From: Candidatus Methanoperedenaceae archaeon
GTDB lineage: Archaea; Halobacteriota; Methanosarcinia; Methanosarcinales; Methanoperedenaceae
DNA length: 37,919 nt
Direction of reading: 5' to 3'
NCBI GenBank assembly: GCA_963753595.1
Contig: CAVWCX010000011.1
Span: 1-37,919 of the forward strand
Below, piece after piece: positions 5,785 through 28,213 of this stretch. The position numbers and the translations under genes are program-made. A model generated the notes under the pieces. The model saw only the letters and a list, made by a program, of their open reading frames with translations, made no database searches and was not told the origin of the DNA. Positions within the stretch are counted from its first letter, which is position 1. Every line of letters begins with the position of its first letter.

Positions 5785-5874
5785 TGTACACCTCTGTAGA
5801 TTGGTAATAAGTGAAGTCACCACTAATAAAGATTATGGAAATTAGAGCTTTATATTATGTATTTTCAAATCGAT

Positions 5875-10627: not shown

Positions 10628-11557
10628 TCATTTAAAGGCTCCTCTGAGGATATGTTTGATTTTATTTACTCCTTTTTGCAATAATGGACGACCTGAAAAA
10701 ATAATCTTTTCGGTTGTTGAATCTGCCACTGAATCACGCAAAATATAAGGAGGATGTGATAGAGGAAAAATCATATTTCCAGTTTTCATCTCTGCTAACT
10801 TATTTATTTCTATTGTATGAACCGCATCTGTAGCAAATCCTATATTAGACACTAGATTAACAGCTGGTAAAATCGTCAATGCACTTTGTATCCAGCATGA
10901 AAAAGTCCACTGGTAATCCCATGTATCTATCTTCCCTTTATACACATTTTCAAATCTATTTTTCCAATACCAAACGCTTATTTTAGCCCCAAGCAAATCC
11001 TGCAACCATCCCCCATCGCGAATCTCTGGCCACAGTTTCATATCAACGTCATAATTCTCCCAGGCTCTTTGCCAGGATGCCCAGCCCCATATATGAGGAT
11101 AACGAGAGAAGTAATAACTATATTCAGTCCTTTTTCGACCAAACTGGAAATTATCCCCACTGATCATGGCAATCCGTTTATCATCCCGGTACTTATTGAG
11201 CATTTCCTCGCAAAACCGGAAGAATGTCGGATGCGGCAGGCAGTCATCTTCAAGAATAATTGCTTCTTCAACTGTATCGAACACCCAGTCCAGGCCACTC
11301 GACACCCGGCGTTTACAGCCCATATTCACATCAGAATAATTGGTCAAAACCTTGCAGTCCCAATCCACACCGTCGATGATAGCACGAACAGCAGCGCATT
11401 TTTCCACATCACCGGGATGGTCTGTGCGCGGACCATCCGCAACGACCAGAAGTTTTGGTGGTCTGGCTTTGGCTATTTCTGCAAACACTCTCCTGGTGGT
11501 GTCAGGGCGGTTGAATATTAAGAAAGCGACCGGGGTTTTTAATTGGTAATTGGACAT
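10628..11557 (-). CDS. GT-A fold nucleotide-diphospho-sugar transferase (HlpA-like/GT2-related)
   Basis: FNRPD, ADGPR, IILEDDCLP, HIWGWASW, TWDYQW and NLVSNIGF motifs. Confidence 0.85.
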   Translation of the reverse strand: MSNYQLKTPVAFLIFNRPDTTRRVFAEIAKARPPKLLVVADGPRTDHPGDVEKCAAVRAIIDGVDWDCKVLTNYSDVNMGCKRRVSSGLDWVFDTVEEAIILEDDCLPHPTFFRFCEEMLNKYRDDKRIAMISGDNFQFGRKRTEYSYYFSRYPHIWGWASWQRAWENYDVDMKLWPEIRDGGWLQDLLGAKISVWYWKNRFENVYKGKIDTWDYQWTFSCWIQSALTILPAVNLVSNIGFATDAVHTIEINKLAEMKTGNMIFPLSHPPYILRDSVADSTTEKIIFSGRPLLQKGVNKIKHILRGAFK

Positions 11558-11586
11558 TTTGTATTTTTTATAATTTAAATAAATCT

Positions 11587-13023
11587 TCAAGTTTTTCTAT
11601 GGCTAAGACAATTATTAAGAATTTCACTGATATATTTTATAATAATTTTCATTTTAGTATTTACTGAATAACTTAAATCTATACCCTTGAATTTTCCCTT
11701 AAACAGAGAATCAGGATCGTAGTATTTATATGGTATTCCTGCAAGTGATTGGAAATATCCATATTTCATAGCACCGAGATTTGAAAGAGGCTTTAAGTGG
11801 TCATTGATCAAATTAATAAGTTCTTCATGATCTTTTGGAATATAACAACTCTCCAGGTCTTCATATGATGATCTGCCTGCGAGTATCGATGGCTTTCCCC
11901 AATAAACACTCTCAATACCAACTGTTGACCCGAAAGTAATCACTTTCTCACATGCATCCATCAGTTCATATGAGTCGATCTTTGAATCTGCAGGAATGAC
12001 AATTAAATTTTTACCTTTTAACTCAGATAGTTCTCTCGTTTGGGTATTGTCCAATCCTTTCAGATTCGGATGGATTCTTAAATAGAATCTTATATTCTCA
12101 TCTATCTCGGAATTTAAAATTGCATTAATCGCATCGGTCTGGTTTTTGTATATTGGATTCTCCCAACCCTCAATTGCTGCAAATTCATCTTCAGATGAAA
12201 TGTATATTGAAACATTTCTCTTTGATGCGTCAAAACCATCCGGCATTTTCCTCTTGTTTTGGGATTTTGTATATGAATACCACCCCTGGTCCTTTCCGCC
12301 TCTACGATCTATAAACCATTGCTTTGCGATATCTTCTTTTTCATTGTCAGGCCAGTCATTATCCCAAAAATTATTAATTATATTTTTTTGATATTCAATG
12401 TCATGTGGGTAAGTATCTTCAGAAAGTGCGTATTTTTTTGAAACACCAGCACGTTCATGGACAAAAGTTTTAATACCAAGATCCTGAGCCGCTCTCAGAG
12501 CAGGTCTTATTGCTGCGAATCTCCCATTAAATAGATAAAATATATCAGGTTCGATTTGTTGTATATGGTACTTTATAGCATTATAAACTGAGTTTGACAT
12601 TAATATATTTTCATAAATATAATTTTTAAAATTGCTTACGTTTGGATTGGGATCACGGGTCTTACTAATCAATGTGGAAGCAACCGCCATTCCAATATCA
12701 ACATTGTTAATTTTAAACGAGTTTAACTCTTCGATGGAATGAAAATCAGGCAGGTCTAAACATTTATAAAAATTATTTAAAGCAAGTTCATGTCGATTCT
12801 GATCTGGCAGGTTTATTATAGATAATCCTCTGTCACACTGATATCTGCATGCAATACAACGAAATTTTGTGTGAGATGGATTTGGTTCACATGATGGCAG
12901 ATCACCTGAACACTGGATGATATGGACTTCATCTCCTGCATCGAGATGTCTGGCTGCAATTTCCAGGTCGGTTCCGAGATGAGGGATCCATGCTGCATAT
13001 GACATGTATATTAGGATTTTCAT
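11587..13023 (-). CDS. Capsule-synthesis/KpsS-like protein, candidate nonulosonic acid transferase
   Basis: FNGRF, RIHPN and ITFGSTVGIES..GKP motifs resemble KpsS/Capsule_synth proteins; Cys-rich N-terminal segment. Confidence 0.65.
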   Translation of the reverse strand: MKILIYMSYAAWIPHLGTDLEIAARHLDAGDEVHIIQCSGDLPSCEPNPSHTKFRCIACRYQCDRGLSIINLPDQNRHELALNNFYKCLDLPDFHSIEELNSFKINNVDIGMAVASTLISKTRDPNPNVSNFKNYIYENILMSNSVYNAIKYHIQQIEPDIFYLFNGRFAAIRPALRAAQDLGIKTFVHERAGVSKKYALSEDTYPHDIEYQKNIINNFWDNDWPDNEKEDIAKQWFIDRRGGKDQGWYSYTKSQNKRKMPDGFDASKRNVSIYISSEDEFAAIEGWENPIYKNQTDAINAILNSEIDENIRFYLRIHPNLKGLDNTQTRELSELKGKNLIVIPADSKIDSYELMDACEKVITFGSTVGIESVYWGKPSILAGRSSYEDLESCYIPKDHEELINLINDHLKPLSNLGAMKYGYFQSLAGIPYKYYDPDSLFKGKFKGIDLSYSVNTKMKIIIKYISEILNNCLSHRKT

Positions 13024-13184
13024 GTTTGCCTCATGTTAATAAAACCTCTATGAGGGGTACATTCTGGCGCATCTCCCACCCACATTTTAATATCAATAAT
13101 ATTTTTTTCTTTGAGAGAATTTATGGCAATTCTAGCGTTTATAGAATCAAAACCCCAAATTATTGTATTTTTCATTTTCACCAT
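13020..13184 (-). pseudogene. 54-aa ORF, probable N-terminal remnant of a replaced gene
   Basis: MVKMKNTIIWGFDSINARIAINSLKEKNIIDIKMWVGDAPECTPHRGFINMRQT*; starts just after the upstream stop, and its stop overlaps the next ATG (ATGA). Confidence 0.4.
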
Positions 13185-13195
13185 ACGTCAATTCA

Positions 13196-13948
13196 CTAAT
13201 GTTTATTCGAACCAAACACATTTAATTTACCAGCATTGTATATATCTTCATTCAATGATTTGGTATTCATCCTTGGAGTTTCTATAGTCACAAACCCAAA
13301 TGGATTATCCAATATACACTGTTTAAAATATGCAAAATCATACTCACCATCTCCAATATTTAAATGCTCATCCCTTTCCACGCCCAGTGTTCCATCGCTT
13401 ACATGAAAGACTTTTGGCTCAAATGGTAAAAATCCATTAATATACTCCTTATAATCAACCCCAAGACTCACCGCAGCTTTTACTGCATGCCCGAAATCCA
13501 GGCACAGCCCCAAATCACTATCCCCGATCAGCTCTTCGATCTGGTCAGGTGAATACCCGATCATCGCCTCATCATCCAGCCCAACCTTCGGCATGTTTTC
13601 GATGAGGAGCCTGTTGTCTGATAGCTTGCGCAGCAGGTCTATAGCATGTTGCATGGAACCGTGACCTGCATGAAGTATCAAATATTTTGCGTTTAGCTGG
13701 TCAGCCCAGTTGATAGATTCGTTGATTTTTTGCAGGTTATATTCTTTTATGCTGTCTTCTCCGATATTCACACCAAATCTGTGGTGAGGGATGTGAATGA
13801 TAAAAGGCATATCGATAATAAATGGTTCTATTTGAGTACCGGGAATTACAAACAATTCAATGTAATCGAATATTTTTTCATCGATAAGCTGGATTGCCTG
13901 ATCAATTAAGTTTGTATTTATAGACCACAATTTTAATCCGAATTTCAA
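13196..13948 (-). CDS. TIM-barrel protein, xylose isomerase/AP endonuclease 2-like
   Basis: Metal-ligand pattern ILHAG, LIENMP, CLDFGHA, FHVSD, DEHL, TIETP; TTG start after GAGGA. Confidence 0.8.
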   Translation of the reverse strand: MKFGLKLWSINTNLIDQAIQLIDEKIFDYIELFVIPGTQIEPFIIDMPFIIHIPHHRFGVNIGEDSIKEYNLQKINESINWADQLNAKYLILHAGHGSMQHAIDLLRKLSDNRLLIENMPKVGLDDEAMIGYSPDQIEELIGDSDLGLCLDFGHAVKAAVSLGVDYKEYINGFLPFEPKVFHVSDGTLGVERDEHLNIGDGEYDFAYFKQCILDNPFGFVTIETPRMNTKSLNEDIYNAGKLNVFGSNKH

Positions 13949-13999
13949 GAATATCCTCTACCATACTTTAATGATAACATATATATTAGCTACTTCACC

Positions 14000-14418
14000 T
14001 CATGGTATTGATACAACAATAATTGATGATTGATTTGGGATGAGCTGGATTTTTAATGGTTCTATACGACTAATATTATATTTAAGGTCTTCAATGTTTT
14101 AAATAAAATTCTATTATGATCCGAATTGTAAAGATAAAGTCTCTGTGAAGGACTACCTAATTCAAAAACAGGCTCAATCATGATTATTTTCTTGCTAGCT
14201 AATCTATGCATCTCTTTCAAAGCAAGTTCTCCAGAATATGATATCTGTTCCAAACAATGCATACTGAATACAACATCAAAATGTTTGTCATCCCGTATCG
14301 TTTTACTTGTGATTGATTGTTGGGATAATTCAATATCATTGAGTCTTTTTCCATAAAATTTCTGTGCATCATATATTGATTTACTATCGAGATTGGTTTT
14401 TAGCCAAGGTGTTTCATA
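14000..14418 (-). pseudogene. Degraded class I methyltransferase (C-terminal part only, frameshifted)
   Basis: Frame reads ...DDKHFDVVFSMHCLEQI...ALKEMHRLASKKIIMIEP; no start codon or SAM motif I; an apparent frameshift near 14080 continues ...IEPLKIQLIPNQSSIIVVSIP*. Confidence 0.65.
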
Positions 14419-14489
14419 TTAATTAAGATAACGATGACGAACTCTCAATTATATATCCAAATTTTGATATAAATACAATGTTGAACTTT

Positions 14490-15536
14490 TCATTCTATCA
14501 AATCCCAGCTTAAAGGTGTTCCTCTTTTAACATCCTTTTTCGTTTTTCTTCCAAGAATATCCTTAATGTATTTGGGAGCAAGTCCAAATCCTGGCCTTAT
14601 GGATCTTACATTCGCATCCGTAAATACGGCTCCTGCTTTCGTATCTTCCACCACGAACAGTGAACGTGAGAATTCCCTGCTTTTCTTACTTTTTTCTGTC
14701 AGATCATAATTGACAGTACCCAATGCCTTTTCCACGTCTCTAACTGCTTTAACCATTGCTCTGAATTCATTTGGTTCCATTGAGAATGCGGCATCCGGTC
14801 CACCCATTTTCCTATCCAATATAAAGTGTTTCTCTATTATCTTTGCTCCGAGTGCCACCGCCGCTATAGGGACCGAAATACCCAACGTGTGGTCCGACAG
14901 GCCCACAATTGTGTTGAAGGTATCTGCCAGATTTGGGATGGTTCTTAAATTAACCTCTTCAAGTGGTGCAGGGTATGCTGATGTGCATTTCAAGAGCAAA
15001 ATCTGGTCATTCCCCATTCTCTTGCAGGCATTTACGGCTTCTTCAATGTCTGCAAGCCTGGCTATACCGGTAGAGATGATCACAGGCTTTCCTTTTGATG
15101 CAATATATTCGATGAGGGGTATGTCTGTTATCTCAAAGGATGCAACCTTATAGGCTGGGACCTTCATCTCTTCAAGGAAATCTACGGACGTCCTGTCAAA
15201 AGGAGATGAGAAACAAACAAGATCTAATTCCTCTGCGATTTCTTTGAGTTTTGGTTGCCATTCCCATGGGGTGTATGCTTCCTGATAGAGTTGATATAAT
15301 GTTTTACCATCCCATAATGTACCTTGATTTATCTGGAAATGTTCGGTATCTGAATCTATTGTTATTGTGTCTGGAGTATAGGTCTGGAGTTTGACTGCAT
15401 CTGCACCAGATTCTTTTATGGCTCTTATTGTATCTACCGCAAGGTCAAAATTTTGAAGATGATTTGCCGAGAGTTCTGCTATTATAAACACAGGATTGCC
15501 ATCTCCTATTGGACTATTTTTTAAAACTATCATCAT
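14490..15536 (-). CDS. pseI: Pseudaminic acid synthase (NeuB family)
   Basis: IAELSANH, KLQTYTPDT, LYQEAYTPWEW, KVASFEI, KCTSAYPA, SDHTLG and IEKHF motifs; C-terminal SAF domain. Confidence 0.9.
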   Translation of the reverse strand: MMIVLKNSPIGDGNPVFIIAELSANHLQNFDLAVDTIRAIKESGADAVKLQTYTPDTITIDSDTEHFQINQGTLWDGKTLYQLYQEAYTPWEWQPKLKEIAEELDLVCFSSPFDRTSVDFLEEMKVPAYKVASFEITDIPLIEYIASKGKPVIISTGIARLADIEEAVNACKRMGNDQILLLKCTSAYPAPLEEVNLRTIPNLADTFNTIVGLSDHTLGISVPIAAVALGAKIIEKHFILDRKMGGPDAAFSMEPNEFRAMVKAVRDVEKALGTVNYDLTEKSKKSREFSRSLFVVEDTKAGAVFTDANVRSIRPGFGLAPKYIKDILGRKTKKDVKRGTPLSWDLIE

Positions 15537-16206
15537 CTTTAGAACTCCTTTCTTTGTATATTTTTACAATATATTTGCAACCATTATATTCAAAAAAAGC
15601 GGGATATTCATCATTATTTACAATTCTCAACAGGTCAAATTGTTCTTTGATACTTTTATTAATATCTAATTCACTATCTTTTGGTGTTCTTTTCCTGTAA
15701 TGAGTAATTGTTCCACTTTGTTTAATAGGCATCAGATTATTATAATCATTTAAAAATTTAAGACACAACTCAAATGTTTTTTTGGCTTGTTTCTCTCTTA
15801 TTTCATCATTAAGCTCATGACCTTCAAGTAAAATATAATCTTTAATATAGAAGTCTCCATCATCAGCATTTTCATTTGCTTCAAATAATGTAATAGGAAT
15901 CTTATTCTTTTTTTCTAATATTTGCCAGAATAATGGTGCCCAGCCTCTGCCATTTGGTAAATCACTCGCATGAATTACAATGTTATGTTTATGTTTTCTT
16001 AAAAAATTGTTTCCAATTATTTTGAAATAGCTCAGAATGAAGACAATTTCAAAATCACGATTAATTTCGTCATGATCTAAAAACAAATTTGTATCATAGC
16101 CAATTGCATTTAAAATATTCATTAATTTTTGAGCATAAGGCACAAACCAACTATCCGATGTGAGTACAGCTATTTTTTTAAATTTCATTTTAAATCTCTC
16201 ACACAT
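15514..16206 (-). CDS. Sugar N-formyltransferase (Fmt-like)
   Basis: NIVIHASDLPNGRGWAP (HxSxLPxxRG) followed by ADDGD; LRIVNNDEYPAFF tail. Confidence 0.8.
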   Translation of the reverse strand: MCERFKMKFKKIAVLTSDSWFVPYAQKLMNILNAIGYDTNLFLDHDEINRDFEIVFILSYFKIIGNNFLRKHKHNIVIHASDLPNGRGWAPLFWQILEKKNKIPITLFEANENADDGDFYIKDYILLEGHELNDEIREKQAKKTFELCLKFLNDYNNLMPIKQSGTITHYRKRTPKDSELDINKSIKEQFDLLRIVNNDEYPAFFEYNGCKYIVKIYKERSSKDDDSFKK

Positions 16207-16278
16207 TCAAATGCTTCAGTGCATTTTAAACCAATATATAATTCTTCTCTTCATTATACAACCGCTCAAAGGTACTTT

Positions 16279-17589
16279 TCATGTCAATCTCTTGAATCCA
16301 GAATGGCAAACCGGACCCTTTAAATATTTATCTGGATTTCCATCCTTAATTGCTATGGAAATTAAAGTAAATGTTGAGTCCACTGCGTCAGAATATTTTT
16401 CAATGAATTCATCTTGGTGAGCATATGACGCATAAAATCCATTCGAAGCCAAGAAACCTTTTTCCAGCATCAATTGTGTGAAAAGCGTTTTTATAACCAG
16501 AGGTTTTTCATATTTGAAATCAAAATGTCCCAAGGGATCAATCCCCGAAATCTCAATATCAATATCATATTTAGAAGCAATAGTTTTCCACAAGTCTTTA
16601 ACTTTCTTTCCAGCCCCTATCAAATGTTCAGTGACGTTATTATCCTTTATCTTATTTATTGTTGCAAGAGCTGCTGTTGGTCCAATTCTATCTGTCCAAT
16701 ATGTGCTGCTTATGAAGGTATCCTGTGCAACTTCCATCACATCGTTCTTACCTATTATCGCAGCCATGGGAAACCCATTGCTCATCCCCTTTGCGAAAAC
16801 CGCTATATCCGGTTCCAGATCAAAAAGCAGATGCGCTCCCCCATTATTCAATCTAAAACCTGCTGTGATTTCATCTACGATCAAGACTATTCCCAGATCA
16901 TTTGTTACCTGCCTTATGGTTTTAATAAAATCCTTATCAGGCACAAAATTCCTTATAGGTTCCATGACCACAACCCCGATATTGTCTTTATGTTCTTCGA
17001 CAAGTCTCAGGAAACCTTCCGTATCATTATAAATAAATGGATATGCCAAACCTTTCAATGCCTGCGGCACACCAAGAGGATTCAATCCAGGCAGCAAATG
17101 CCCATCCAGCGATTTCTCATCAGCAAGATTCGAAGAGAGATACCAGTCATGCCAGCCATGGTAGCCACAGAAGAGCACAGTATCTTTTCCGGATTTTGCC
17201 CTTGCGATCCTCACTGCGATCATCATAGATTCTCCCCCTGTTCTTGCATATCTCACCATTTCTGCCCAGGGATGAAGTTTGATCAAAAGCTCGGCAAGTT
17301 CCACTTCTTCAGGAGCATTCAGGGTGCACATATTTCCTTTATCAACAGCCGATTTGACAGCTTTATTTACATCATCATCAGCATATCCAAGGATGCAGGA
17401 GCCAACTCCCATGGTGCTCATATCTATGTATTTTTTCCCATCAAGATCCCACACCTCACATCCTTTTGCCCTATCGTAATATGCTGGCCAGAGTTCAGGA
17501 AGGAACATTTCTGGCCTCTTTGATAATAACTGCGTTCCACCCGGGATTAATTCCGTGGCTCGTTTGTAAAGTTCCTGTGATTTACCCAT
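16279..17589 (-). CDS. Class III PLP aminotransferase (glutamate-1-semialdehyde aminomutase-like)
   Basis: WDLDGKKYID, RTGGE, GYHGWHDW, DEITAGFR and FAKGMSNGFP (PLP lysine); glycan-locus context argues against a true hemL. Confidence 0.85.
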   Translation of the reverse strand: MGKSQELYKRATELIPGGTQLLSKRPEMFLPELWPAYYDRAKGCEVWDLDGKKYIDMSTMGVGSCILGYADDDVNKAVKSAVDKGNMCTLNAPEEVELAELLIKLHPWAEMVRYARTGGESMMIAVRIARAKSGKDTVLFCGYHGWHDWYLSSNLADEKSLDGHLLPGLNPLGVPQALKGLAYPFIYNDTEGFLRLVEEHKDNIGVVVMEPIRNFVPDKDFIKTIRQVTNDLGIVLIVDEITAGFRLNNGGAHLLFDLEPDIAVFAKGMSNGFPMAAIIGKNDVMEVAQDTFISSTYWTDRIGPTAALATINKIKDNNVTEHLIGAGKKVKDLWKTIASKYDIDIEISGIDPLGHFDFKYEKPLVIKTLFTQLMLEKGFLASNGFYASYAHQDEFIEKYSDAVDSTFTLISIAIKDGNPDKYLKGPVCHSGFKRLT

Positions 17590-18370
17590 TTTGACGCTCT
17601 TCAATGCCCTCTGAACTTAAAATCTTATCTTCTTTCAATGATTTCAGATATCCTTCGTTTCTGCTGAGTGAGTTATTTATTTTTTCTATCTCCGGATTTT
17701 CATTTGTGAATTTAAGTATTTCCTTCATACCAAAAAACGGATTGTTCTTATAAAGGTTCTCGTATATTAATTTTATGAACTCATAATCTTCCGGATTATC
17801 CAGAGTCCACCTCTTTTGGGATAGGTCTTCATTATATTCTAAATTCACATGTTTGAAGGATGGATTTTTCCTTATATAAGGAGTCACATGTTCCCGTTCT
17901 GAAGCTAGATTTGCATTTTTCCATGCTTCTTTTAATGCATTAAATGTGAATATCTCAGTATCCTGTCCATCTGGAAATGTTTCTTTTAGGGTATTTGATG
18001 TATAATCCGCTTTTTCGGACAAATGCAATGCAACAACATCATCTATTGTTTTTGGATCTATCAACGGACAATCTGATGTTATTCTTACAATATGGTCTGC
18101 TTTGAAAAGCCTTGCTGTCTGATAATATCGGTCAAGAACGTCATCAACTGAGCCGCAGTAAACACTTATTCCAAGAGAGGCACAGAGCTTCACGATTTCA
18201 AGATCTTCTTTATTGATTGTTGTCGCAACTATAACATCATTGGCAAGTTTGCTTGATCTTACTCGTCCAATAACATGCTCCAGCACAGTTCTGCCTTCAA
18301 GACCAAGCAGGACTTTTCCAGGTAATCTCGTTGACCCAAGTCTTGCCTGGATTATTGTGATGATATTCAT
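17582..18370 (-). CDS. SpsF-like sugar cytidylyltransferase
   Basis: IIQARLGSTRLPGKV, GSVDDVLDRY, RITSDCPLID, REHVTPYI and RWTLDNPED motifs. Confidence 0.85.
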   Translation of the reverse strand: MNIITIIQARLGSTRLPGKVLLGLEGRTVLEHVIGRVRSSKLANDVIVATTINKEDLEIVKLCASLGISVYCGSVDDVLDRYYQTARLFKADHIVRITSDCPLIDPKTIDDVVALHLSEKADYTSNTLKETFPDGQDTEIFTFNALKEAWKNANLASEREHVTPYIRKNPSFKHVNLEYNEDLSQKRWTLDNPEDYEFIKLIYENLYKNNPFFGMKEILKFTNENPEIEKINNSLSRNEGYLKSLKEDKILSSEGIEERQNG

Positions 18371-19239
18371 TGTGATCTTACCTTCCAATTAACAGGCAGT
18401 ATAATTTTCTCATCATCTTCTTTAAATTGAGAAAGTTCATTGAGTATATTTCTAACATTTGTAAGATAATCTAATGATGAGATATTTTCTTTCAAATTCT
18501 CAATACTATCAACACCAACAACAACCTTATCCACAGAATCATTAAGTATTGCGAAATTCAGACACAAGGCCCCCATGGGAATATCATATTTCATTGACAA
18601 CGAGTTGAGGGCTAATATTTTTTCTTTTATTTTGGCAAAATGCCCGACTAACTCTTCAGGATTTTTAAAGACCAGACCCTGGAGGAAAACAGACCTCACA
18701 TGAATTTCTACATTCCTATTTTTAAGTTCGTTAAAAAATGGTTCAAATCTTCTGTCGAATATACTATACGGTACTTGTATAATATCTATTTCTAATTTTT
18801 TCTTGAGAATATATTCCAGTTCAGAGGGATAATATAGTGAAAAGCCGATTTTTTGAATCTTTTTTCCTGTTTTCAATTTCTCAAGGATATCCCATATTTC
18901 CGGATTTTCTTTATAATGTTGAAAGTTGTGAATAAGGTATCCATATATTCTGTCGATGTTCAGTTTTTTGAGAGAAATATCAAACAAGTCTTCTATTTGC
19001 TCAATTTTGCAGTCAGGCGATTTAGTTACTAACCTGAATTGTTTTTTATATTTTTTTATAAAATCCCCTATAACAGTTTCACTTTCACCATATAAATAAG
19101 CTGTATCAAGGGTATCTATTCCAGATTTAATTGCCTCATTAAGGATTTCAAACACTTCATCCCTTGGTATTTTCCCTCTTTTATTGCTGACACCGTAATC
19201 CATGCCGAACTGAACAGTCCCAAGTGCTATCTTATTCAT
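18367..19239 (-). CDS. Aldo/keto reductase
   Basis: LGTVQFG, DTAYLYG, TK, LIH, IGFSLY, IQVPYS and RSVFLQG motifs. Confidence 0.85.
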   Translation of the reverse strand: MNKIALGTVQFGMDYGVSNKRGKIPRDEVFEILNEAIKSGIDTLDTAYLYGESETVIGDFIKKYKKQFRLVTKSPDCKIEQIEDLFDISLKKLNIDRIYGYLIHNFQHYKENPEIWDILEKLKTGKKIQKIGFSLYYPSELEYILKKKLEIDIIQVPYSIFDRRFEPFFNELKNRNVEIHVRSVFLQGLVFKNPEELVGHFAKIKEKILALNSLSMKYDIPMGALCLNFAILNDSVDKVVVGVDSIENLKENISSLDYLTNVRNILNELSQFKEDDEKIILPVNWKVRSQ

Positions 19240-20375
19240 ATTGAATTCTTATAATCTTTGATTTTTTCTGCAATATATTCCAGGCTGTCGTCTTCCATTT
19301 TAGGGAACAGGGGCAATGTTATTATACGTTTGAATGTATTTTCTGTTACTGGAAAATCATTTTTATCAAAATTAAAATTTTCTATATAATAACTATGTCT
19401 ATATGCTGGAATGTAATGCACATTCACACCAATATTTGCATTCTTCATATACTTAAAAAAATTATCACGGCTTATTGATTCATCCAGCAGGATCGTATAT
19501 ATATGCCAGGCATGTCTGATATTATCTTTAAGGATTGGCAATCGGACAAAATCAATATCCTTCAGAAGTTCATTATACTTCATGGCAAGCTCATTTCGCC
19601 TTTCAATAAATTTATCCAACTTTTTAAGTTGGGATCTCCCTAATGCGGCCTGAAAATCCGTTATCCTGTAATTCCTTCCAAGATATTTCATATCATATGC
19701 CCATGAAGCGTCTTTTCCATATCGATCCATGGTATTTCTATCGATTCCATGCGTTCTTAGAAGTGATATTTTTTCATACAACTCTTTATTATTAGTAGCT
19801 ACAGCACCACCTTCTCCTGTAGTTATATGCTTTACAGGATGGAAACTGAAGATCGTAAGGTTTGCAAAATTTCCAACCTTGGTATGTTTATATTCTGCAC
19901 CTATCGCATGACAGGCATCCTCTATCAAAAAGAGGTCATATTCATCAGCGACCTCTCTTATTTCTTTAATATCACATGGATGCCCTGCATAATCCACATA
20001 AATAATAGCCTTTGTTTTCTTAGTAATTTTTTTTCGAATATCTTCTGGATCAATGTTGAAGGTATCGCGGCTTATATCTGCAAAAACGGGTACCAAATTA
20101 TTGTATATTATTGCATTTGATGTAGCTACAAATGTAAAAGGAGTCGTAATGACCTCGCTACCTTTGGGAAGATCCAATGACTGGACAGCAATATCAAGTG
20201 CGCTTGTTCCGCTATTGACGGCAACACAATATTTACACTCTATATATGCACACAATGCATCTTCGAATTCCTTTATCCTTGGGCCGGTTGTAATCCAGTC
20301 ACTCTGTAAAACGTTTATTACCTCATCAATATCTTCTTGTTCGATCCATTGCAAACCATAAGGTATGAATTTCAT
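19236..20375 (-). CDS. pseC: UDP-4-amino-4,6-dideoxy-N-acetyl-beta-L-altrosamine transaminase (DegT family)
   Basis: IPYGLQ, EDACHAIG, FSFHPVKHITTGEGG, NYRITDFQAALG and NVHYIP motifs; ATG after GAGGTG. Confidence 0.85.
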   Translation of the reverse strand: MKFIPYGLQWIEQEDIDEVINVLQSDWITTGPRIKEFEDALCAYIECKYCVAVNSGTSALDIAVQSLDLPKGSEVITTPFTFVATSNAIIYNNLVPVFADISRDTFNIDPEDIRKKITKKTKAIIYVDYAGHPCDIKEIREVADEYDLFLIEDACHAIGAEYKHTKVGNFANLTIFSFHPVKHITTGEGGAVATNNKELYEKISLLRTHGIDRNTMDRYGKDASWAYDMKYLGRNYRITDFQAALGRSQLKKLDKFIERRNELAMKYNELLKDIDFVRLPILKDNIRHAWHIYTILLDESISRDNFFKYMKNANIGVNVHYIPAYRHSYYIENFNFDKNDFPVTENTFKRIITLPLFPKMEDDSLEYIAEKIKDYKNSI

Positions 20376-20385
20376 GGCACCTCTA

Positions 20386-21066
20386 TTATTTTTCAATTTT
20401 AAACTTCATTTCAGGATATAAATCATAATTCTTCCTCAGCAAGGAAACTGATATCCGGCTCATGTTATCAACATCTGGATCAAATTCCTTTGTTTCATGG
20501 TGACCGGTCATGAAACCCACGAGAGTATAAAGGTTAGAACTTGTGAATAATTTGGTATAATCTTGTTTAAATGTCCACATTTGTTCATCTTTGACATGAT
20601 GATAATTTACTTTTACAGGGGAGTCCGGCATGAAATCCCCAATGACCAAGATACCTTTATCTGAAAGAACTCTATCAATCTCAAATATTGACTTAAATAA
20701 TTTTTCGCGACTAATCCAGTGAAAAACAAAATTTATAATTATCATATCGAATTTTATAGTATTATCAAATGGTAATTCACTGGCAAGACTTTTGTGGAAT
20801 TCGATGTGGGGATATCTTTCTTTTCCATCTTTGATGGCATGTTCTGAAGGCTCAACAGCAGTACATTTAGAACCATATAAATTTTTGAGCTCGTTTAATC
20901 GAAAACCGTTGCTTGCACCAATTTCCAGCACATTTTTTGGAACAATTTTATATAGACGGATAATATCCAAAATAAAGTCATGTTTTGATATTTTAACAAT
21001 ACTGTCAACATTCCTTTTAAACCAATTGTCTCCTTCATAATTCAAAAAAATGTTATCCTGATTCAT
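20386..21066 (-). CDS. Class I SAM-dependent methyltransferase (nonulosonate-cluster associated)
   Basis: EGDNWFKRN, VLEIGASNG, FDMII and EIDRVL motifs. Confidence 0.8.
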   Translation of the reverse strand: MNQDNIFLNYEGDNWFKRNVDSIVKISKHDFILDIIRLYKIVPKNVLEIGASNGFRLNELKNLYGSKCTAVEPSEHAIKDGKERYPHIEFHKSLASELPFDNTIKFDMIIINFVFHWISREKLFKSIFEIDRVLSDKGILVIGDFMPDSPVKVNYHHVKDEQMWTFKQDYTKLFTSSNLYTLVGFMTGHHETKEFDPDVDNMSRISVSLLRKNYDLYPEMKFKIEK

Positions 21067-21100
21067 TATCTCAGCCTTTTATGCTATCCTTTATTTATTT

Positions 21101-22033
21101 TCATTGACTTTCCATCCATTTTTTTACAGAGTCAACACCTTTTTTAAGGTTAGTTCTCGGTTCCCAACCCAGCATCTCTTTAGCTTTTGAATAATTGCAT
21201 AACAATTTCGGTATCTCACTCTGCGGATGTATATGTTTTACATGTTTAATTCGCATTGGGTCTTTGCATATCATAGCTGCAAGATCGTTTATTGTGATAT
21301 CCTCACCTGAACCCGCATTTAGTACTTCACCATTAACATAATTAGAACATGCTGCCATAACCACGAATTCCGCACAATCTTCTACATACATCAAATCTCG
21401 CGTTTGGTTTCCATCACCATATATGTTGGAAACGTCCTTATTAATCTCTTTTTGAATAAATACAGAAACTACCCCCCCCTCGCCTGTGGATTTTTGAAAA
21501 GGTCCATATGTATTAAAAGGGCGAAGGATAACAGTGGGCAATCCGTATGCATGATAGTATGATTGTACCATATTCTCTCCAGCGAGCTTTGCGCCAGCAT
21601 ATGGAGACGTTGCCTTTGTGGGGTGGATTTCTGATATGGCACCGCCCGCGGACGCAGTGTCATATACCATGCATGTACTCATGAAAACGAACTTTGTGTT
21701 TGTCTTTTTTGCTTCTTCAAGAACATTGAACGTTCCCACAACATCATTCTCAAAAGTCCTCCTTGGATGATCGATACTGTCCTGTACCACGATGCTGGCC
21801 GCCAGATGGATGCAAATATCAAAATTGTTCCGGAATAATCTGGATAACAATGTTGTATCCTTGATGTCGCCAATCGTTATATCGAGATCGGGATTATCCC
21901 TGAATTCATCAAGATTCTCGGCGCGCCCGTTGGACAGGTCGTCCAATACCCATACGTGATTATTATCCTCAAGCAATCGTTTGACAACCCATCGTCCTAT
22001 AAAACCAGAACCTCCTGTTACCAAAACATTCAT
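21101..22033 (-). CDS. NAD-dependent nucleotide-sugar epimerase/dehydratase (extended SDR)
   Basis: TGGSGFIG, HLAA, SPYAGAK, LRPFNTYGP and GDGNQTRD motifs. Confidence 0.9.
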   Translation of the reverse strand: MNVLVTGGSGFIGRWVVKRLLEDNNHVWVLDDLSNGRAENLDEFRDNPDLDITIGDIKDTTLLSRLFRNNFDICIHLAASIVVQDSIDHPRRTFENDVVGTFNVLEEAKKTNTKFVFMSTCMVYDTASAGGAISEIHPTKATSPYAGAKLAGENMVQSYYHAYGLPTVILRPFNTYGPFQKSTGEGGVVSVFIQKEINKDVSNIYGDGNQTRDLMYVEDCAEFVVMAACSNYVNGEVLNAGSGEDITINDLAAMICKDPMRIKHVKHIHPQSEIPKLLCNYSKAKEMLGWEPRTNLKKGVDSVKKWMESQ

Positions 22034-22062
22034 TTTTGTACCTTCGCAGTTACATATGCCAT

Positions 22063-23097
22063 CTAATATATAATCCTCTCCTTCATTAGAATTTTTTTTA
22101 TCTCATCCTTTGTGATCGGAATTACATCCTTTGATACATAATCCTTCGATTTGATCGGAACTGCATTATACGCAGATACATCTATTTTTGTCAATTCATC
22201 TTCGATCTGAGGCAATATTACGAACATATCATCGCCTTCAAGTGACCGACTTGCCTCATCCTCTGTCATCAGTTCTTCGTACATCTTCTCACCAGGTTTT
22301 GTTCCGATGATCTCTATCTTGAGATCCTCAGGCCGGTGACCATAACGCGGTGCCAGTTCAGCTATAAGCACTTCAGCCAGATCGAAAATGTTTATAGTGG
22401 GCATCTTAAATATAAATACTTCTCCTCCCTGCGACATCTGTGCAGATTTAAATACAAGTTCGACCGCTTGTGACATAGACATCATAAAGCGTGTCATTGT
22501 CGGGTCAGTGATCGTTACAGGACCTCCATCTTTAATTTGCCTCTTGAATAATGGGATCACAGAACCGCGAGATCCCATTACATTGCCGAATCTGACACTG
22601 GAAAACACGCAGTCGCGTGCGCCCTTATAATAATTTGCAGAAGTCATCAGTTTTTCTGCCAGAAGCTTAGTAGTTCCCATTGTGTTGGATGGATTCACGG
22701 CTTTATCGCTGCTTGTAAAAATGATTTTGCCTACATTGTTATTTATGGCGGCTTCGATGACATTCTGCATACCAATTACATTTGTCTTTACCGCTTCAAA
22801 GGGATTATATTCACATGCCATCACATGTTTCAGTGCTGCAGTATGGAAGATTACGTCAATGCCTTCCGTCGCACGATTAAGCCGCTCTTTATCCCGCACA
22901 TCGCCAAGAAGATATCTGACAACGTCTTCATGTTCCTTTAGTTCTTGCTGGAGATCGAACTGTTCTGTCTCATCCACATCAAAAATTCTAATAACTTTAG
23001 GATTATTTTGCAGGATCTTGTGCACAAGTTCGCGACCAAGGGAACCTGTGCCGCCGGTTATGAGGATATTTTTATTTTGCAGGAAATTGTATTTCAT
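22063..23097 (-). CDS. UDP-GlcNAc 4,6-dehydratase (PseB/CapD/CapE-like)
   Basis: TGGTGSLG, AALKHV, SSDKAVNP, MGTTK, RFGNVMGSRGSVIPLF, MTRF and PGEK motifs. Confidence 0.9.
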   Translation of the reverse strand: MKYNFLQNKNILITGGTGSLGRELVHKILQNNPKVIRIFDVDETEQFDLQQELKEHEDVVRYLLGDVRDKERLNRATEGIDVIFHTAALKHVMACEYNPFEAVKTNVIGMQNVIEAAINNNVGKIIFTSSDKAVNPSNTMGTTKLLAEKLMTSANYYKGARDCVFSSVRFGNVMGSRGSVIPLFKRQIKDGGPVTITDPTMTRFMMSMSQAVELVFKSAQMSQGGEVFIFKMPTINIFDLAEVLIAELAPRYGHRPEDLKIEIIGTKPGEKMYEELMTEDEASRSLEGDDMFVILPQIEDELTKIDVSAYNAVPIKSKDYVSKDVIPITKDEIKKILMKERIIY

Positions 23098-23154
23098 ATA
23101 ACAGTCCACTACATTGTATTTTTGGTTTTCATTCTCATAATCCCCTTCAATTAA

Positions 23155-24444
23155 TTATAAATCTTCCCATGTAAAACTATCTCTTAATTGATTTAATGAA
23201 TTTTCTATCGCGCACTCATCGCGCAACTTTAAAATGTTTTTCCTGAATGTCTGGAATTCATGAATGTATTTCTCATAATTTTCAATAATATCTTCTATTT
23301 TACTCACAAATTCCTCAAGGCTGTTGCAACAAATTCCGATTGGATTTTCACGTTTATTAAAGGTATTAATACAATCATTATTAAAATGTAGAATCGGTTT
23401 AGTGTAAGACAAAGATTCGAGAATTGAACCACTACAACTAAGCCGGTAACGACTTATGTCATATAATATGAGAAACACATCAATATCTCTGGCATATTTT
23501 TCCATATCACTTCTATCCAGCACCTTTCCAGGGCTTGGACATATAATATTCGGGAAACCTACAGTTCCTCTATTATCCATCCCGATAATACGGATTTCAT
23601 ACGGTTTTTTTAACTCTTTTTGCGAAAGTTGATAAAGCACATTGTGTAGCATCAATGAATTCCCATAACCGAAAGTTGCAAATTTGGCATATTCATTATT
23701 TGGCGCAGGGGTTGGTCCTGCAAAAATAGTAGGAAGTATAACAGTATACAGATTCAATTCTTTTACATCTATATACTTCTGTGCATTTATAATAACATGA
23801 GGTGATAAACAAATATATTTAAAGTCAGAAGAATGTTTCCAGAGCAACATTTCCCTTTCTTTAAACAATTTTGTGGATATCGATTGCCAGGGCATATTAA
23901 TTAATTGTGTGATAACCCCCGCAGCTTTGCGGAGAAAGTCTTTGAATTTCGTTTGTATGATAGTTTTAATAATATATTTATTTGTTAATTGTTTGATGGG
24001 CAACGATAATCCACCCGGCTTATCGTATCCATTCGCAATATTTTCAAAGCTTCCATGAAGCACGAGAGTGAATTTCAGGTTCAAAAAATTGCGTTGTTGC
24101 TTTAATTTTTTAATCACATAGAGAATCGAAGGACTAAATGACAAAAAGAAGATTTTATTAGTTCCTGCCCCAAGTACGTCAGAAAATATTTTTTTGAAAA
24201 GTGAGTAGTATGTGATCATACCCCATATACTATAAATGTCCCGGAATTTAATCGGAATATATTCAATAGTATTAATTAAGACTTTATCATGAATTAAAAT
24301 TTTCTTAATTGCCTCAATGTGTGTAATGTCTGCATAAAATCTTATTGCTTCCTGCGGATAAGCTAAACTTAGTCCATAAATAAAGCCACTGTTAACTTTT
24401 TCGTGACTTATTCCTTTGTTTATCGGATCACAGATTATTATCAT
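23155..24444 (-). CDS. Divergent GT-B glycosyltransferase-like protein
   Basis: HEKVN near the N-terminus; C-terminal Y...Y.LSCSGSILESLSYTKPI resembles the GT4 donor-binding region; operon context. Confidence 0.55.
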   Translation of the reverse strand: MIIICDPINKGISHEKVNSGFIYGLSLAYPQEAIRFYADITHIEAIKKILIHDKVLINTIEYIPIKFRDIYSIWGMITYYSLFKKIFSDVLGAGTNKIFFLSFSPSILYVIKKLKQQRNFLNLKFTLVLHGSFENIANGYDKPGGLSLPIKQLTNKYIIKTIIQTKFKDFLRKAAGVITQLINMPWQSISTKLFKEREMLLWKHSSDFKYICLSPHVIINAQKYIDVKELNLYTVILPTIFAGPTPAPNNEYAKFATFGYGNSLMLHNVLYQLSQKELKKPYEIRIIGMDNRGTVGFPNIICPSPGKVLDRSDMEKYARDIDVFLILYDISRYRLSCSGSILESLSYTKPILHFNNDCINTFNKRENPIGICCNSLEEFVSKIEDIIENYEKYIHEFQTFRKNILKLRDECAIENSLNQLRDSFTWEDL

Positions 24445-25315
24445 TATATTCCATCATTATATCTGCCAGCTTATAAAAATCTACTTTTGGCTGCCATCCA
24501 ATACTTCGTATCAATTCAGGATTGCTAACTAAAATTTTGTAATCAGGTGTAAAATCATGATATATGATTACATAATCTTCCCAATTCCTGTTGATTTTTT
24601 TGAAGCAGTATTCTACCCATTCCTTAATACTGTGAGCTTCGCCACTGCCAATTATTGCCTCGAATACAGTCTCCTGGTTTATCAATGTCCAAACCGCTTC
24701 AACCACATCACCTGCATAATTAAATTCCTTTTTTACATCGATATTTCCTAATTCCAACTTTTCAGTACTGCCATTAGCAATCCTTTTTACTGAGCTTACT
24801 ATTTTTTGGTTTACATGCTTCTCGGATCTCAATGGACTGTCATGATTAAAAAAATAGCCTACATACACTTTTAAACCAAAAGCAGAACGATAATATCTGC
24901 CTGCGTAAACCGATTGAATACGAGCCACAGAATAAGGACTACTTGCCTCAAAAGGAGTTTGTTCATCGATAGGTATCCCTTCGTTCTTAAACTGCATAGC
25001 ACTGCCGGATAAAAACACTCTCACTGTTGGACAATGCAGCCGGACGCACTCCAGGATATTGAGCGTTCCGGTGCTTATTGCTTTGTGATTATCAAACAAT
25101 GCAGAATGGTGCGTGGTGGAATTAGCTGCGAAATGAAAAATGTAGTTTGGTCGATGATGCTTTATTATTGATTCGACAAAAGAATAATCAGCCACATCAC
25201 CCTTTGAATCGCCATGAGAGCGGGAGACTCCAATAACTTCTATGTTTTTATTTCGAAGTAACTCCGAAAGATAATGTCCATCTTGACCGCTAATACCAAA
25301 TATAAGTGCTTTCAT
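24428..25315 (-). CDS. GMD-like short SDR, probable GDP-4-keto-6-deoxysugar reductase
   Basis: GISGQDGHYL, HFAA, SPYSVAR, FNHDSPLR and LGNID motifs; lacks the GMD TSE catalytic motif. Confidence 0.75.
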   Translation of the reverse strand: MKALIFGISGQDGHYLSELLRNKNIEVIGVSRSHGDSKGDVADYSFVESIIKHHRPNYIFHFAANSTTHHSALFDNHKAISTGTLNILECVRLHCPTVRVFLSGSAMQFKNEGIPIDEQTPFEASSPYSVARIQSVYAGRYYRSAFGLKVYVGYFFNHDSPLRSEKHVNQKIVSSVKRIANGSTEKLELGNIDVKKEFNYAGDVVEAVWTLINQETVFEAIIGSGEAHSIKEWVEYCFKKINRNWEDYVIIYHDFTPDYKILVSNPELIRSIGWQPKVDFYKLADIMMEYNDNNL

Positions 25316-25339
25316 GAAATATTATCTTCTAGAAAATTA

Positions 25340-25792
25340 TCATCCGTTATCAGATGCTCTTCTTTCTATCAATTTGACAAAAAAATCATCAATAGCATCA
25401 ATACATCTTGTCCTTTCAAGATTAAGAATTGCCAACTGTTTAATCACTTTATCTTTTTCATTAATGGGTATTTTTTCAAATTCATACACTTTTTCCTGCT
25501 CATGCCAAAGAAGACAATTAGTTTCAGCAAGTTTGCCAAAAACAACCCCAATAGTACTATTTGTTACCTGTATCTCATTTAGCTCCCCTTTGAATACTTT
25601 ATTAGATTTAAAGGTTAGTTTGCCTATAGGGATCACGCCATTTATTGCATCCGCTATAAACTCATCAATTTCATCTATAAGTTGTTGTTGCTGCTTTTGT
25701 AGACTATGTAACTTAACTTGATCATCGGAATGGTAAAGTTTGAGTTTTACAATTGTAAATTTATCACAAAGAGATCCCAATGTTTCTGCCAT
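25340..25792 (-). CDS. Small helical protein, DUF4254/DUF6165-like
   Basis: ETLGSLCDKFTIVKLKLYH and NCLLWHEQE...NLERTRCIDAID motifs; GGAGG SD sequence. Confidence 0.55.
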   Translation of the reverse strand: MAETLGSLCDKFTIVKLKLYHSDDQVKLHSLQKQQQQLIDEIDEFIADAINGVIPIGKLTFKSNKVFKGELNEIQVTNSTIGVVFGKLAETNCLLWHEQEKVYEFEKIPINEKDKVIKQLAILNLERTRCIDAIDDFFVKLIERRASDNG

Positions 25793-25902
25793 ATTAAAAG
25801 CCTCCTATCATATCTGCGTATTTGATTGTTACCTCAATAGTCTTGTCAAATAATGACTGTCTAAACCATTCACATTAAAAGTGAGGGTATTTACTACTGC
25901 GT

Positions 25903-27663: not shown

Positions 27664-27745
27664 TTGTTCTCCTATATAAATATTAACTTGCGTTGGGCAC
27701 ACTTTAATATCACTTCGCCGAATTGACCCAAATATCTCTCAAACC

Positions 27746-28105
27746 TCACCTTATTCCCCCTGTCCAGGCACCATCGCCGATTACATTGTCTTGACCTTTC
27801 TGTGGAATACCTCTCATTCGGTCTCTGCCAAGAGAATAATCATGGGTTTCAGTATTTATGGAAACGTTCTGGTCACACAACATGTATTCACTTATTGTAA
27901 TTGTTCCCGAGTTCGTGTTTAAAAGTGCATTAGACATAGTTGCTGTCTTCTCAATTCGCACACGTTTAGGGTCTACAAAAATGCGAACGTAGTTAAGCAT
28001 GATATCCATTACGAATGGACATAGCAATCCTCGAATAATGCGGTAAATGCAACTTCGTCCTCTAGTCCGTTTCCCAAATAATTCCTTTGGAATATTTCGA
28101 ATCAT
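27746..28105 (-). pseudogene. Truncated hexapeptide-repeat (LbH) acyltransferase
   Basis: SGTITISEYMLCDQNVSINTETHDY...NVIGDGAWTGG then a premature stop; the usual C-terminal coils and GxPA motif are missing. Confidence 0.65.
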
Positions 28106-28213
28106 TCCTTATTATCCACTACCTGATTCGGGTATTAGTTATAATTTTATTTATTGATTGGGTACAATACGAGAGGAAAGTTAAATTTCGAATCCCTTGG
28201 TGTCTAGTCTGGA

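Follow-up and report, generated by a model that had tools for sequence, protein, structure and literature searches.

A putative endonuclease IV-type TIM-barrel replacement for PseG in an archaeal pseudaminic acid gene block

The usual marks of a pseudaminic acid (Pse) pathway in a genome are the six genes pseB, pseC, pseH, pseG, pseI and pseF. In the window analysed here, which is the entire 37,919-nucleotide contig CAVWCX010000011.1 (G000:C11) of an archaeal assembly from Candidatus Methanoperedenaceae (GCA_963753595.1; 2.89 Mb, 37 contigs, 92.33% complete), a block of minus-strand genes combines pseC and pseI with a gene for a 250-amino-acid endonuclease IV-like TIM-barrel protein (13196-13948, minus strand; AP_endonuc_2, PF01261). 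Judged by sequence comparison, this protein is probably a non-orthologous replacement for the UDP-sugar hydrolase PseG, and such a replacement by an endonuclease IV-type TIM barrel, widespread in archaea and bacteria, is likely to be the main novelty of the block. A sequence-only reading of the same DNA had listed the TIM-barrel protein and missed its likely role as a PseG substitute.

That reading had also noted that canonical PseG, PseH and PseF are missing from the window, and a profile search extended this to the whole assembly, in which none scored above its cut-off. The PseG model (TIGR03590) gave no match at E ≤ 0.01 in the window or in the rest of the assembly. For PseH (TIGR03585, cut-off 93.1 bits), no gene of the assembly exceeded the cut-off and three weak GNAT matches (20.5-23.9 bits) lay on other contigs; for PseF (TIGR03584, cut-off 205.7 bits), none exceeded it either, and the sole match was the SpsF-like gene of the block at 23.6-24 bits. 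Canonical copies elsewhere in the genome had been named as the finding that would speak against a non-canonical pathway, and the outcome of the search favours the earlier proposal. About 8% of the genome is unassembled, and genes missing from the assembly are accordingly to be read as not found rather than as proven absent.

Linkage of the TIM-barrel gene to pseI and exclusion of PseG

A word-index search returned 465 relatives of the TIM-barrel protein at E ≤ 1e-5, and the best 120 of these 465 were 67-97% identical to it. Where these 120 carried a name at all, it was 'TIM barrel protein', 'endonuclease IV', 'deoxyribonuclease-4' or 'sugar phosphate isomerase/epimerase'. The family amounted to 359 clusters at E ≤ 1e-30 in a profile search of 1.84 billion representatives. 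A scan with one genome per species gave 17 loci, the archaeal ones from Methanoperedenaceae, Methanosarcina, Methanolobus, Methanohalophilus, Methanococcoides, Methanocalculus, Methanofastidiosum and Altiarchaeales, and the bacterial ones from four phyla (Vulcanimicrobiota, Leptospirales, Atribacterota and Patescibacteria). The genes of these loci were mapped by tblastn with the window proteins, keeping matches that covered at least 50% of the query, and pseI was located at most 1.3 kb from the TIM-barrel gene in 12 of the 17. In the remaining five a contig end fell within about 1.6 kb of the TIM-barrel gene, in four of them on the pseI side. The two genes were also linked in loci L027 and L028, and their reading frames overlapped by four bases in L011 and L012.

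Family scans were made of 26 of the 97 open reading frames (ORFs) called in ten loci and of three further ORFs. In each of six minimal clusters (L011-L014, L020 and L021), PseI and the TIM-barrel gene were accompanied by PseB, PseC, a PseF-type gene and a GNAT gene with a match to the PseH model. Their PseF-type genes scored 160-177 bits, with PseF as the top match though under its cut-off, and the PseH-model GNAT was above its cut-off in five of the six (161-170 bits) and reached 45 bits in L021. A small cupin gene adjoined PseB in five of these clusters, and one to three extra tailoring genes were present in L012, L013 and L021. No PseG-like ORF was found in any of the six. These clusters thus hold five of the six canonical functions together with the TIM-barrel protein, and since no PseG-like ORF is present they would lack a hydrolase candidate unless the TIM-barrel protein is one.

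The occurrence of both proteins was then compared in a sample of 301 genomes of the phylum. PseI scored above its cut-off in 14 genomes, six of which had PseG above cut-off (G002, G046, G056, G229, G234 and G249), three a TIM-barrel orthologue (G000, G182 and G288) and five neither. Across the whole sample the TIM-barrel protein (E ≤ 1e-20) was detected in six genomes and a PseG-model match (E ≤ 1e-5) in fourteen, and no genome had both. The search for PseG behind the TIM-barrel loci covered 13 of the 17 genomes (all except those of L006, L010, L015 and L017), and PseG above cut-off was absent from 12 of these 13. The thirteenth genome, G308 (locus L018, a Methanocalculus metagenome-assembled genome (MAG); contigs C333 and C107), encodes a 733-amino-acid PseG fusion that adjoins a second pseI on a different contig from the TIM-barrel cluster. 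Unless the bin is mixed, this MAG has two Pse clusters, and each of its two pseI clusters has one hydrolase candidate.

Parts of this distribution weigh against a replacement of PseG by the TIM-barrel protein. The counts overstate independence because the compared genomes are related. Furthermore, four genomes of one related genus (G193, G170, G079 and G258; loci L022-L025) have a full-scoring pseI cluster beside aglB with neither PseG nor the TIM-barrel gene, and a family-profile search of these four for a divergent TIM-barrel orthologue gave only weak, generic matches of 19.9-31.9 bits. The step can therefore be covered otherwise or by an unlinked enzyme, and a third solution for it may exist. 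The same four loci carry a cassette of a short-chain dehydrogenase/reductase (SDR), an ATP-grasp protein, a HAD hydrolase and a methyltransferase. The HAD hydrolase cassette was rejected as a clean alternative for UDP removal, as L028 holds both the cassette and the TIM-barrel protein.

Two observations on the history of the gene pair were made along the way. In a Vulcanimicrobiota MAG (L005), PseI and the TIM-barrel protein were 82% and 73% identical to those of the archaeal window, and L017, L019 and L021 belong to the same observation; likeness of this degree suggests a recent transfer of the pair between the domains. In another genome (G132:C26:270739-271421), a TIM-family gene adjoining a NeuB-family gene was in two pieces (query residues 1-121 and 142-227) and is possibly a decaying copy.

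Fusion partners, metal site and fold of the TIM-barrel protein

Among the best 150 representatives of the TIM family, 28 proteins were at least 396 amino acids long, and 26 of them contained a GNAT part matching the PseH model (E = 7.9e-23 to 8.7e-6). The PseH-like part preceded the TIM barrel in four of these fusions and followed it in 22; the other two long forms carried a formyltransferase domain and a DUF559 domain, respectively. One fusion of the TIM barrel to an SpsF-like domain (501 amino acids) was also found. In locus L030, PseG is itself fused to GNAT and formyltransferase domains in a protein of 736 amino acids, so that PseG and the TIM-barrel protein share fusion partners. All of the fused GNAT parts scored below the curated PseH cut-off (25.9-81.3 versus 93.1 bits), and in three of the 26 another GNAT model outscored PseH; both facts count against the proposed role.

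Nine residues of the TIM-barrel protein (H52, H93, E117, D151, H154, H182, D193, H195 and E223) were invariant in a 30-sequence alignment of the family. Endonuclease IV and MJ1311 have H, H, E, D, H, H, D, H and E in the columns to which these residues align, taken here to be the three-metal ligands of endonuclease IV; eight of the nine align to columns of the Staphylococcus aureus enzyme, and H52 was placed through MJ1311. The presence of the full ligand set argues for phosphoester chemistry. With the family profile, the best solved relatives were MJ1311 (3wqo, E = 1.3e-10) and endonuclease IV (E = 1.5e-9), and the protein scored 59 bits with PF01261 against a gathering score of 31.1. Its AlphaFold model (pLDDT 94.5, pTM 0.92) is a barrel of the endonuclease IV/MJ1311 type, and Foldseek matched it to members of the PF01261 family with a probability of 1.00; its matches included 3wqo, endonuclease IV structures, TTHB071, MbnB and ketose 3-epimerases.

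Either a hydrolase or an isomerase would be compatible with the fold taken by itself. The top fold match, 3wqo, is named 'D-tagatose 3-epimerase-like', and sugar isomerases are numerous in the superfamily; four models of endonuclease IV and CbiR gave only 24.7-39.9 bits against cut-offs of 105-333 (for endonuclease IV, 39.9 versus 333 bits with TIGR00587 and 24.7 versus 129.65 bits with NF002196), and both facts tell against a hydrolase. The weak match to CbiR, a cobamide phosphodiesterase, shows that the superfamily also holds phosphodiesterases acting on small molecules. Among the literature matches listed, none linked pseudaminic acid to a TIM barrel, a xylose isomerase-like protein or endonuclease IV. 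Missing PseG genes may already have been noted in a survey of archaeal nonulosonate genes by Kandiba and Eichler (2013).

Between pseI and the TIM-barrel gene of the window lies a spacer of 540 bp (13949-14489) without an assigned gene, the largest ORF of which has 66 amino acids and no NCBIfam match. A decayed pseH, formyltransferase or methyltransferase gene in this spacer was considered and rejected, the best match in a tblastn search with nine neighbouring proteins having E = 1.3. At the same position in sister loci, pseI and the TIM-barrel gene abut, overlap, or flank a GNAT or formyltransferase gene.

The shared pseudaminic core and the first-step pair

PseC, the C4 aminotransferase (19236-20396, minus strand), scored 455.5 bits against the curated cut-off of 423.5 (TIGR03588), and PseI, the pseudaminic acid synthase (14490-15536, minus strand), scored 521.6 bits against the curated NCBIfam cut-off of 340.25 (TIGR03586). 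The NeuB model reached 314.1 bits on the PseI protein, under its own cut-off of 399.65. Because both Pse models are exceeded and the NeuB model is not, the product should be of the pseudaminic rather than the neuraminic type, and the pseudaminic-type route proposed from the letters alone is borne out.

The first half of the first step is assigned to a Pen-like UDP-GlcNAc dehydratase of the PseB family (22063-23109, minus strand; Polysacc_synt_2). It scored 345 bits with the PseB model (TIGR03589), below the curated cut-off of 407.75, and its best solved relative was 6bwc_A (355 bits), with Helicobacter pylori PseB (2gn4) at 261 bits. PDB 6bwc was named 'CapD' by its depositors and is presumably Pen. 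The second half is assigned to a Pal-like extended SDR (21101-22033, minus strand), of which residues 1-309 (of 310) matched residues 1-311 of PDB 6bwl_A, 'Pal' (E = 1.8e-123, 414.7 bits); the second-best solved relative was a GalE at 157 bits. In place of the T-D-E triad of dehydratases this protein has STC, and it carries YxxxK. In L007 and L028 the genes always follow the order Pen-like dehydratase, then Pal-like SDR. According to the accessible text of PMC7439481, Pen and Pal share the first step of the Bacillus thuringiensis Pse pathway. Going by these similarities, the pair in the block is the already known two-enzyme first step and not a new one.

A formyltransferase-like gene in the PseH slot

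Locus L007, also from Methanoperedenaceae, is collinear with the window: Pen-like dehydratase, Pal-like SDR, PseC, aldo/keto reductase (AKR), SpsF-like protein, class-III aminotransferase (AT3), a slot X, PseI and the TIM-barrel protein, with proteins 58-84% identical to those of the window. Slot X holds PseH (167 bits) in L007 and a formyltransferase-like gene (15514-16206, minus strand; Formyl_trans_N, PF00551) in the window. Because this gene occupies the PseH slot of L007, 4-N-formylation with a product of the Pse5Ac7Fo type is predicted. The protein scored 32.4 bits with PF00551 against a gathering score of 26.1, and of its solved relatives 1zgh ranked first, ahead of the sugar formyltransferases VioF and ArnA. 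The catalytic residues of PurN, Fmt and ArnA are an Asn-x-His motif and an Asp; in this protein a His occurs within IHASDLPNGRG, and there is a DDGD segment rich in Asp.

Several features argue against formylation by this protein in the place of PseH. The PF00551 match spans only profile positions 81-172, about half of the domain, and the Asn two residues before the His is missing in alignments with Fmt and VioF, as it is in 1zgh. The protein is 44% identical to the C-terminal domain of the PseG-GNAT-formyltransferase fusion of L030; this nearest relative from the loci examined is joined to PseG as well as to a GNAT and is thus no replacement for PseH there. Methanogens, moreover, are generally folate-poor, and the formyl donor is uncertain.

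Activation and tailoring genes

The candidate CMP-Pse synthetase is an SpsF-type cytidylyltransferase (17582-18388, minus strand; CTP_transf_3, PF02348), which scored 126.1 bits with PF02348 against a gathering score of 22.6 and 143.5 bits with PDB 6oew, 'Cytidylyltransferase'. For CYTIDYLYLTRANSFERASE, six loci carried a PseF-type gene and the window, L007, L009, L016-L019, L022-L025 and L027-L030 an SpsF-type gene, each having one or the other. The compact cluster of G002 consists of PseB, PseC, an SpsF-like protein, the PseG-GNAT-formyltransferase fusion and PseI, and its SpsF-like gene is the sole PseF-model match in this 99%-complete genome. No PseF-model match was found in G193 at E ≤ 0.001. 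In L029, the SpsF-like domain is fused to a PseH-like GNAT. The accessible text of PMC7439481 describes B. subtilis SpsF as a putative CMP-legionaminic acid synthetase, deletion of which blocks transfer of the sugar and not its synthesis, and that of PMC7371886 describes a Pse cluster of Vibrio sp. B9-25K2 in which an SpsF-like domain fused to an aldo/keto reductase was suggested to replace NeuA. An SpsF-type enzyme standing in for PseF or NeuA has thus already been suggested in print. Of the unusual enzymes that the sequence-only reading had seen in the block, the TIM barrel therefore retains this status, whereas the dehydratase/SDR pair matches 6bwc and 6bwl and the role of SpsF had been proposed before.

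The AKR (18367-19239, minus strand; PF00248, 135.7 bits) had no solved relative at E ≤ 1e-15. The AT3 (16279-17604, minus strand; PF00202, 150 bits) resembles GSA aminomutases, and its solved relatives were GSA aminomutases, an aminopentol aminotransferase and aminoglycoside C-6' aminotransferases. The order AKR, SpsF-like protein, AT3 recurs in L007, and in all six other loci with an AT3 gene by tblastn (L007, L016, L019, L026, L028 and L029) an NAD(P) oxidoreductase gene was assigned to the same cluster, namely an AKR in L007, a GFO/IDH/MocA protein in L016, L028 and L029 and a short-chain dehydrogenase in L026; that of L019, a locus itself unscanned, was assigned by collinearity with L016. 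The lipopolysaccharide (LPS) cluster of Legionella pneumophila serogroups 6/12, as far as the available text of PMC3694923 goes, contains PseG, a class-III aminotransferase, a cytidylyltransferase, an AKR, DegT, CapD, a capsule-synthesis protein and NeuB. The recurring AKR/SpsF-like/AT3 set is therefore not specific to archaea, and its reading as a novelty of a PseG-less system does not stand, the Legionella cluster having PseG. The occurrence of the AKR, the AT3 and the SpsF-like protein beside PseG in Legionella (PMC3694923, available text), and of AT3 with PseG in L029, led us to discard all three as candidates for a PseG substitute.

The class I S-adenosylmethionine-dependent methyltransferase of the block (20386-21066, minus strand; Methyltransf_11/25), a presumptive tailoring enzyme, gave a weak match of 40.9 bits to the Pse-associated methylase model TIGR03587 (cut-off 112), and genuine TIGR03587 genes lie immediately upstream of pseC in L009, L013 and L021. 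The further amination or methylation of the sugar suggested by the sequence-only reading is a prediction from gene context. It is conceivable, though quite improbable, that the AKR or another oxidoreductase, the SpsF-like protein and AT3 form a tailoring module, recurring in many of these clusters, which first oxidises and then transaminates a hydroxyl position of the (CMP-)nonulosonate to give a tri-amino nonulosonic acid, and the neighbouring methyltransferase may then modify this sugar. No description of a tri-amino nonulosonic acid was found in the literature searched. If true, such a module together with an endonuclease IV-type hydrolase would leave only PseC and PseI in common with the textbook route.

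A candidate transferase and the link to N-glycosylation

The last gene of the block encodes a KpsS/BFO_1060-like protein of 478 amino acids (11587-13023, minus strand), a candidate CMP-Pse-dependent glycosyltransferase. It scored 24.9 bits with Capsule_synth (cut-off 20), and its residues 291-410 matched the BFO_1060 family (NF046086) with E = 1.4e-9 and 37.6 bits, far below the cut-off of 200. The named member of that family is an orthologue of the Pse/legionaminic acid transferase Tanf_01245 of Tannerella forsythia, for which an HP dipeptide motif has been highlighted (PMC5420450); the 478-amino-acid protein contains an HP dipeptide as well (IHPN). Orthologues with 63-65% identity lie between the pse genes and aglB in L024, L025 and L027, two genes from aglB, and one with 59% identity follows the TIM-barrel gene in L015. 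In the window, the Pse block is situated inside an aglB island with glycosyltransferases and a flippase, in agreement with the earlier suggestion that the pathway feeds AglB. From this gene context, the Pse-type sugar is expected to end on glycans transferred by AglB.

Proposed route and alternatives

Taken together, we consider it on balance likely that the block specifies a variant pathway which leads from UDP-GlcNAc to CMP-activated pseudaminic acid and serves the N-glycan of the aglB island. In this route the Pen-like dehydratase and the Pal-like SDR, similar to known enzymes, would form UDP-4-keto-6-deoxy-L-AltNAc; PseC, by its family membership, would aminate this at C4. The formyltransferase-like protein would acylate the new amine in the place of PseH, leading to Pse5Ac7Fo, and the TIM-barrel protein would free the sugar from UDP in the place of PseG. 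In the latter reaction a metal-activated water would attack the beta-phosphate, probably at phosphorus and not at the anomeric carbon, so that the anomeric oxygen leaves with the sugar and UDP and the free 6-deoxy-altrose derivative needed by PseI are formed. PseI, again by family membership, would condense this derivative with phosphoenolpyruvate, the SpsF-type cytidylyltransferase would generate the CMP-sugar in the place of PseF, and the KpsS/BFO_1060-like protein may move the sugar to the lipid-linked glycan. The methyltransferase, AKR and AT3 are either tailoring enzymes or have no assigned step.

The hydrolase step could be read differently if the TIM-barrel protein were a metal-dependent sugar isomerase or epimerase that tailors a hexose or the nonulosonate, for example to a Pse stereoisomer, while UDP is removed by an unlinked or promiscuous hydrolase. 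The best Foldseek match, 3wqo, named 'D-tagatose 3-epimerase-like protein', and the ketose 3-epimerases among the matches fit this idea, and the pseI clusters of four related genomes without PseG or TIM-barrel gene indicate that another activity can serve. However, ketose 3-epimerases have a four-residue site for a single metal, whereas all nine endonuclease IV ligand positions are invariant in the TIM family. The PseH-like fusion in 26 of 28 long forms and the failure of TIM-barrel and PseG-model matches to occur together in any of 301 genomes also speak against an isomerase, and under it the six smallest clusters would be left without any hydrolase candidate. We therefore regard an isomerase as unlikely and retain the TIM-barrel protein as the probable substitute for PseG. 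It is similarly unlikely, in our estimate, that the product is ordinary Pse5Ac7Ac, with the 4-amine acetylated by an unlinked GNAT and the formyltransferase-like protein inactive or accessory. The canonical Asn missing from the alignments, the fusion of a homologous formyltransferase domain to GNAT and PseG in L030 and the three weak PseH-model GNAT matches elsewhere in the genome would suit such a pathway, but these matches, all on other contigs, fell short of the cut-off (20.5-23.9 versus 93.1 bits), the formyltransferase-like gene sits exactly in the PseH slot of the collinear L007, and a TIM-formyltransferase fusion is known in the family.

For the activation step, the SpsF-like protein might not be the CMP-Pse synthetase and might, with the AKR and AT3, build or modify a separate moiety that is cytidylylated; the unassembled 8% of the genome would then encode the true PseF, perhaps along with PseG and PseH. 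AKR and SpsF-like genes adjoin in several loci and are fused in the Vibrio cluster (PMC7371886, available text), the PseF model gave only 24 bits on the SpsF-like protein, and G182 and G079 have a second CTP_transf_3 gene (76.8 bits) just outside their clusters, all of which agrees with a separate moiety. Set against this, the sole PseF-model match of the nearly complete G002 is the SpsF-like gene of its cluster, G193 has none, and the six loci with a PseF-type gene gave no tblastn match to the SpsF-like protein, AKR or AT3 of the window. Moreover, spsF of B. subtilis is needed for the transfer of legionaminic acid and not for its synthesis, as would be expected of an activating enzyme (PMC7439481, available text). 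A separate moiety thus appears rather improbable, and we keep the SpsF-type enzyme as the putative substitute for PseF.

The surrounding locus

All eleven same-strand ORFs that had been listed for the block were present on the minus strand, with family assignments far beyond chance; the end given for the block, 23097, was 12 bases short of the GTG start of the longest ORF at 23109. The block is part of a glycosylation island at about 3.2-32.2 kb of the window, in which almost all genes are on the minus strand. The AglB oligosaccharyltransferase (3241-5823, minus strand) has STT3, AglB_core-like and AglB_L1 domains, and besides it the island contains GT2 and GT4 glycosyltransferases and several methyltransferases. 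An Rfam scan of the window gave no match.

In the same island, a second sugar module (24428-32163, minus strand) comprises a GDP-mannose 4,6-dehydratase (31129-32163), a further GDP-sugar SDR, a Wzx-like flippase (29531-31006), a C-methyltransferase, an FkbM-type methyltransferase of 599 amino acids and a DUF4254 fragment, and suggests a methylated 6-deoxyhexose in the same glycan. Two predicted soluble proteins of 429 amino acids (23155-24444, minus strand) and 320 amino acids (10628-11590, minus strand) have no Pfam match and no predicted membrane segments; L022 and L025 have homologues of the former with 63-66% identity, placed immediately upstream of the Pse genes. Between a DUF11/CARDB surface protein gene and aglB, we observed three tandem copies of a 63-amino-acid ORF (2322-2977, plus strand) with a CxxC...CxxC zinc-ribbon-like motif after an RGG-rich N-terminus. 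The repeat units are 232 bp long with identities of 229/232, 201/232 and 204/232, and the array has no Rfam match.

Comparison with known systems

If the proposed route is true, three of the six canonical Pse genes would be replaceable by unrelated proteins, which would explain Pse clusters that seem incomplete. The labels 'endonuclease IV', 'deoxyribonuclease-4' and 'sugar phosphate isomerase' on TIM-family proteins would then need correction, the endonuclease IV superfamily would gain a new reaction type, and the enzymatic synthesis of Pse derivatives would have a second, mechanistically different enzyme at its disposal.

The closest known relative of the route is the seven-enzyme CMP-pseudaminic acid pathway of B. 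thuringiensis, reportedly described by Li et al. in 2015 with Pen, Pal, Pam, Pdi, Phy, Ppa and a cytidylyltransferase. As in the window, two SDR enzymes divide the first step between them, and PseC-type and PseI-type steps follow. Where the B. thuringiensis pathway is said to use a GNAT acetyltransferase, the window has a formyltransferase-like protein; in the same way a TIM barrel takes the place of its PseG-type UDP hydrolase and an SpsF-type enzyme that of its PseF-type cytidylyltransferase. PseG of Campylobacter and Helicobacter is a metal-independent UDP-sugar hydrolase of the GT-B fold that is reported to cleave the C1-O bond. It shares with the TIM-barrel protein the predicted position in the pathway, the linkage to pseI and the PseH-like fusions, and each Pse cluster that has a hydrolase candidate has one or the other; the folds are unrelated, the TIM barrel having nine endonuclease IV-type metal ligands. 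The TIM-barrel protein has its barrel and its nine ligand columns in common with endonuclease IV (Nfo) and MJ1311 (3wqo), and to our knowledge no function has been assigned to MJ1311. Endonuclease IV differs in length (252-300 residues in the chains compared versus 250) and in context, the TIM-barrel gene being found with sugar biosynthesis and not with DNA repair.

In the text available from PMC3694923 and PMC7371886, the Legionella serogroup 6/12 and Vibrio sp. B9-25K2 clusters resemble the window in combining an AKR and an SpsF-like protein with PseB, PseC and NeuB/PseI homologues, and the Legionella cluster also in its class-III aminotransferase and capsule-synthesis-like protein (PMC3694923). 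Unlike the window, both clusters retain PseG and a GNAT, and the same texts assign no function to the AKR or the aminotransferase. Finally, the 478-amino-acid protein of the window resembles Tanf_01245/BFO_1060 of T. forsythia in having a C-terminal region that falls in the family and an HP dipeptide, and differs from it in the acceptor, which is a bacterial O-glycan for Tanf_01245 and presumably a lipid-linked N-glycan in the archaeon.

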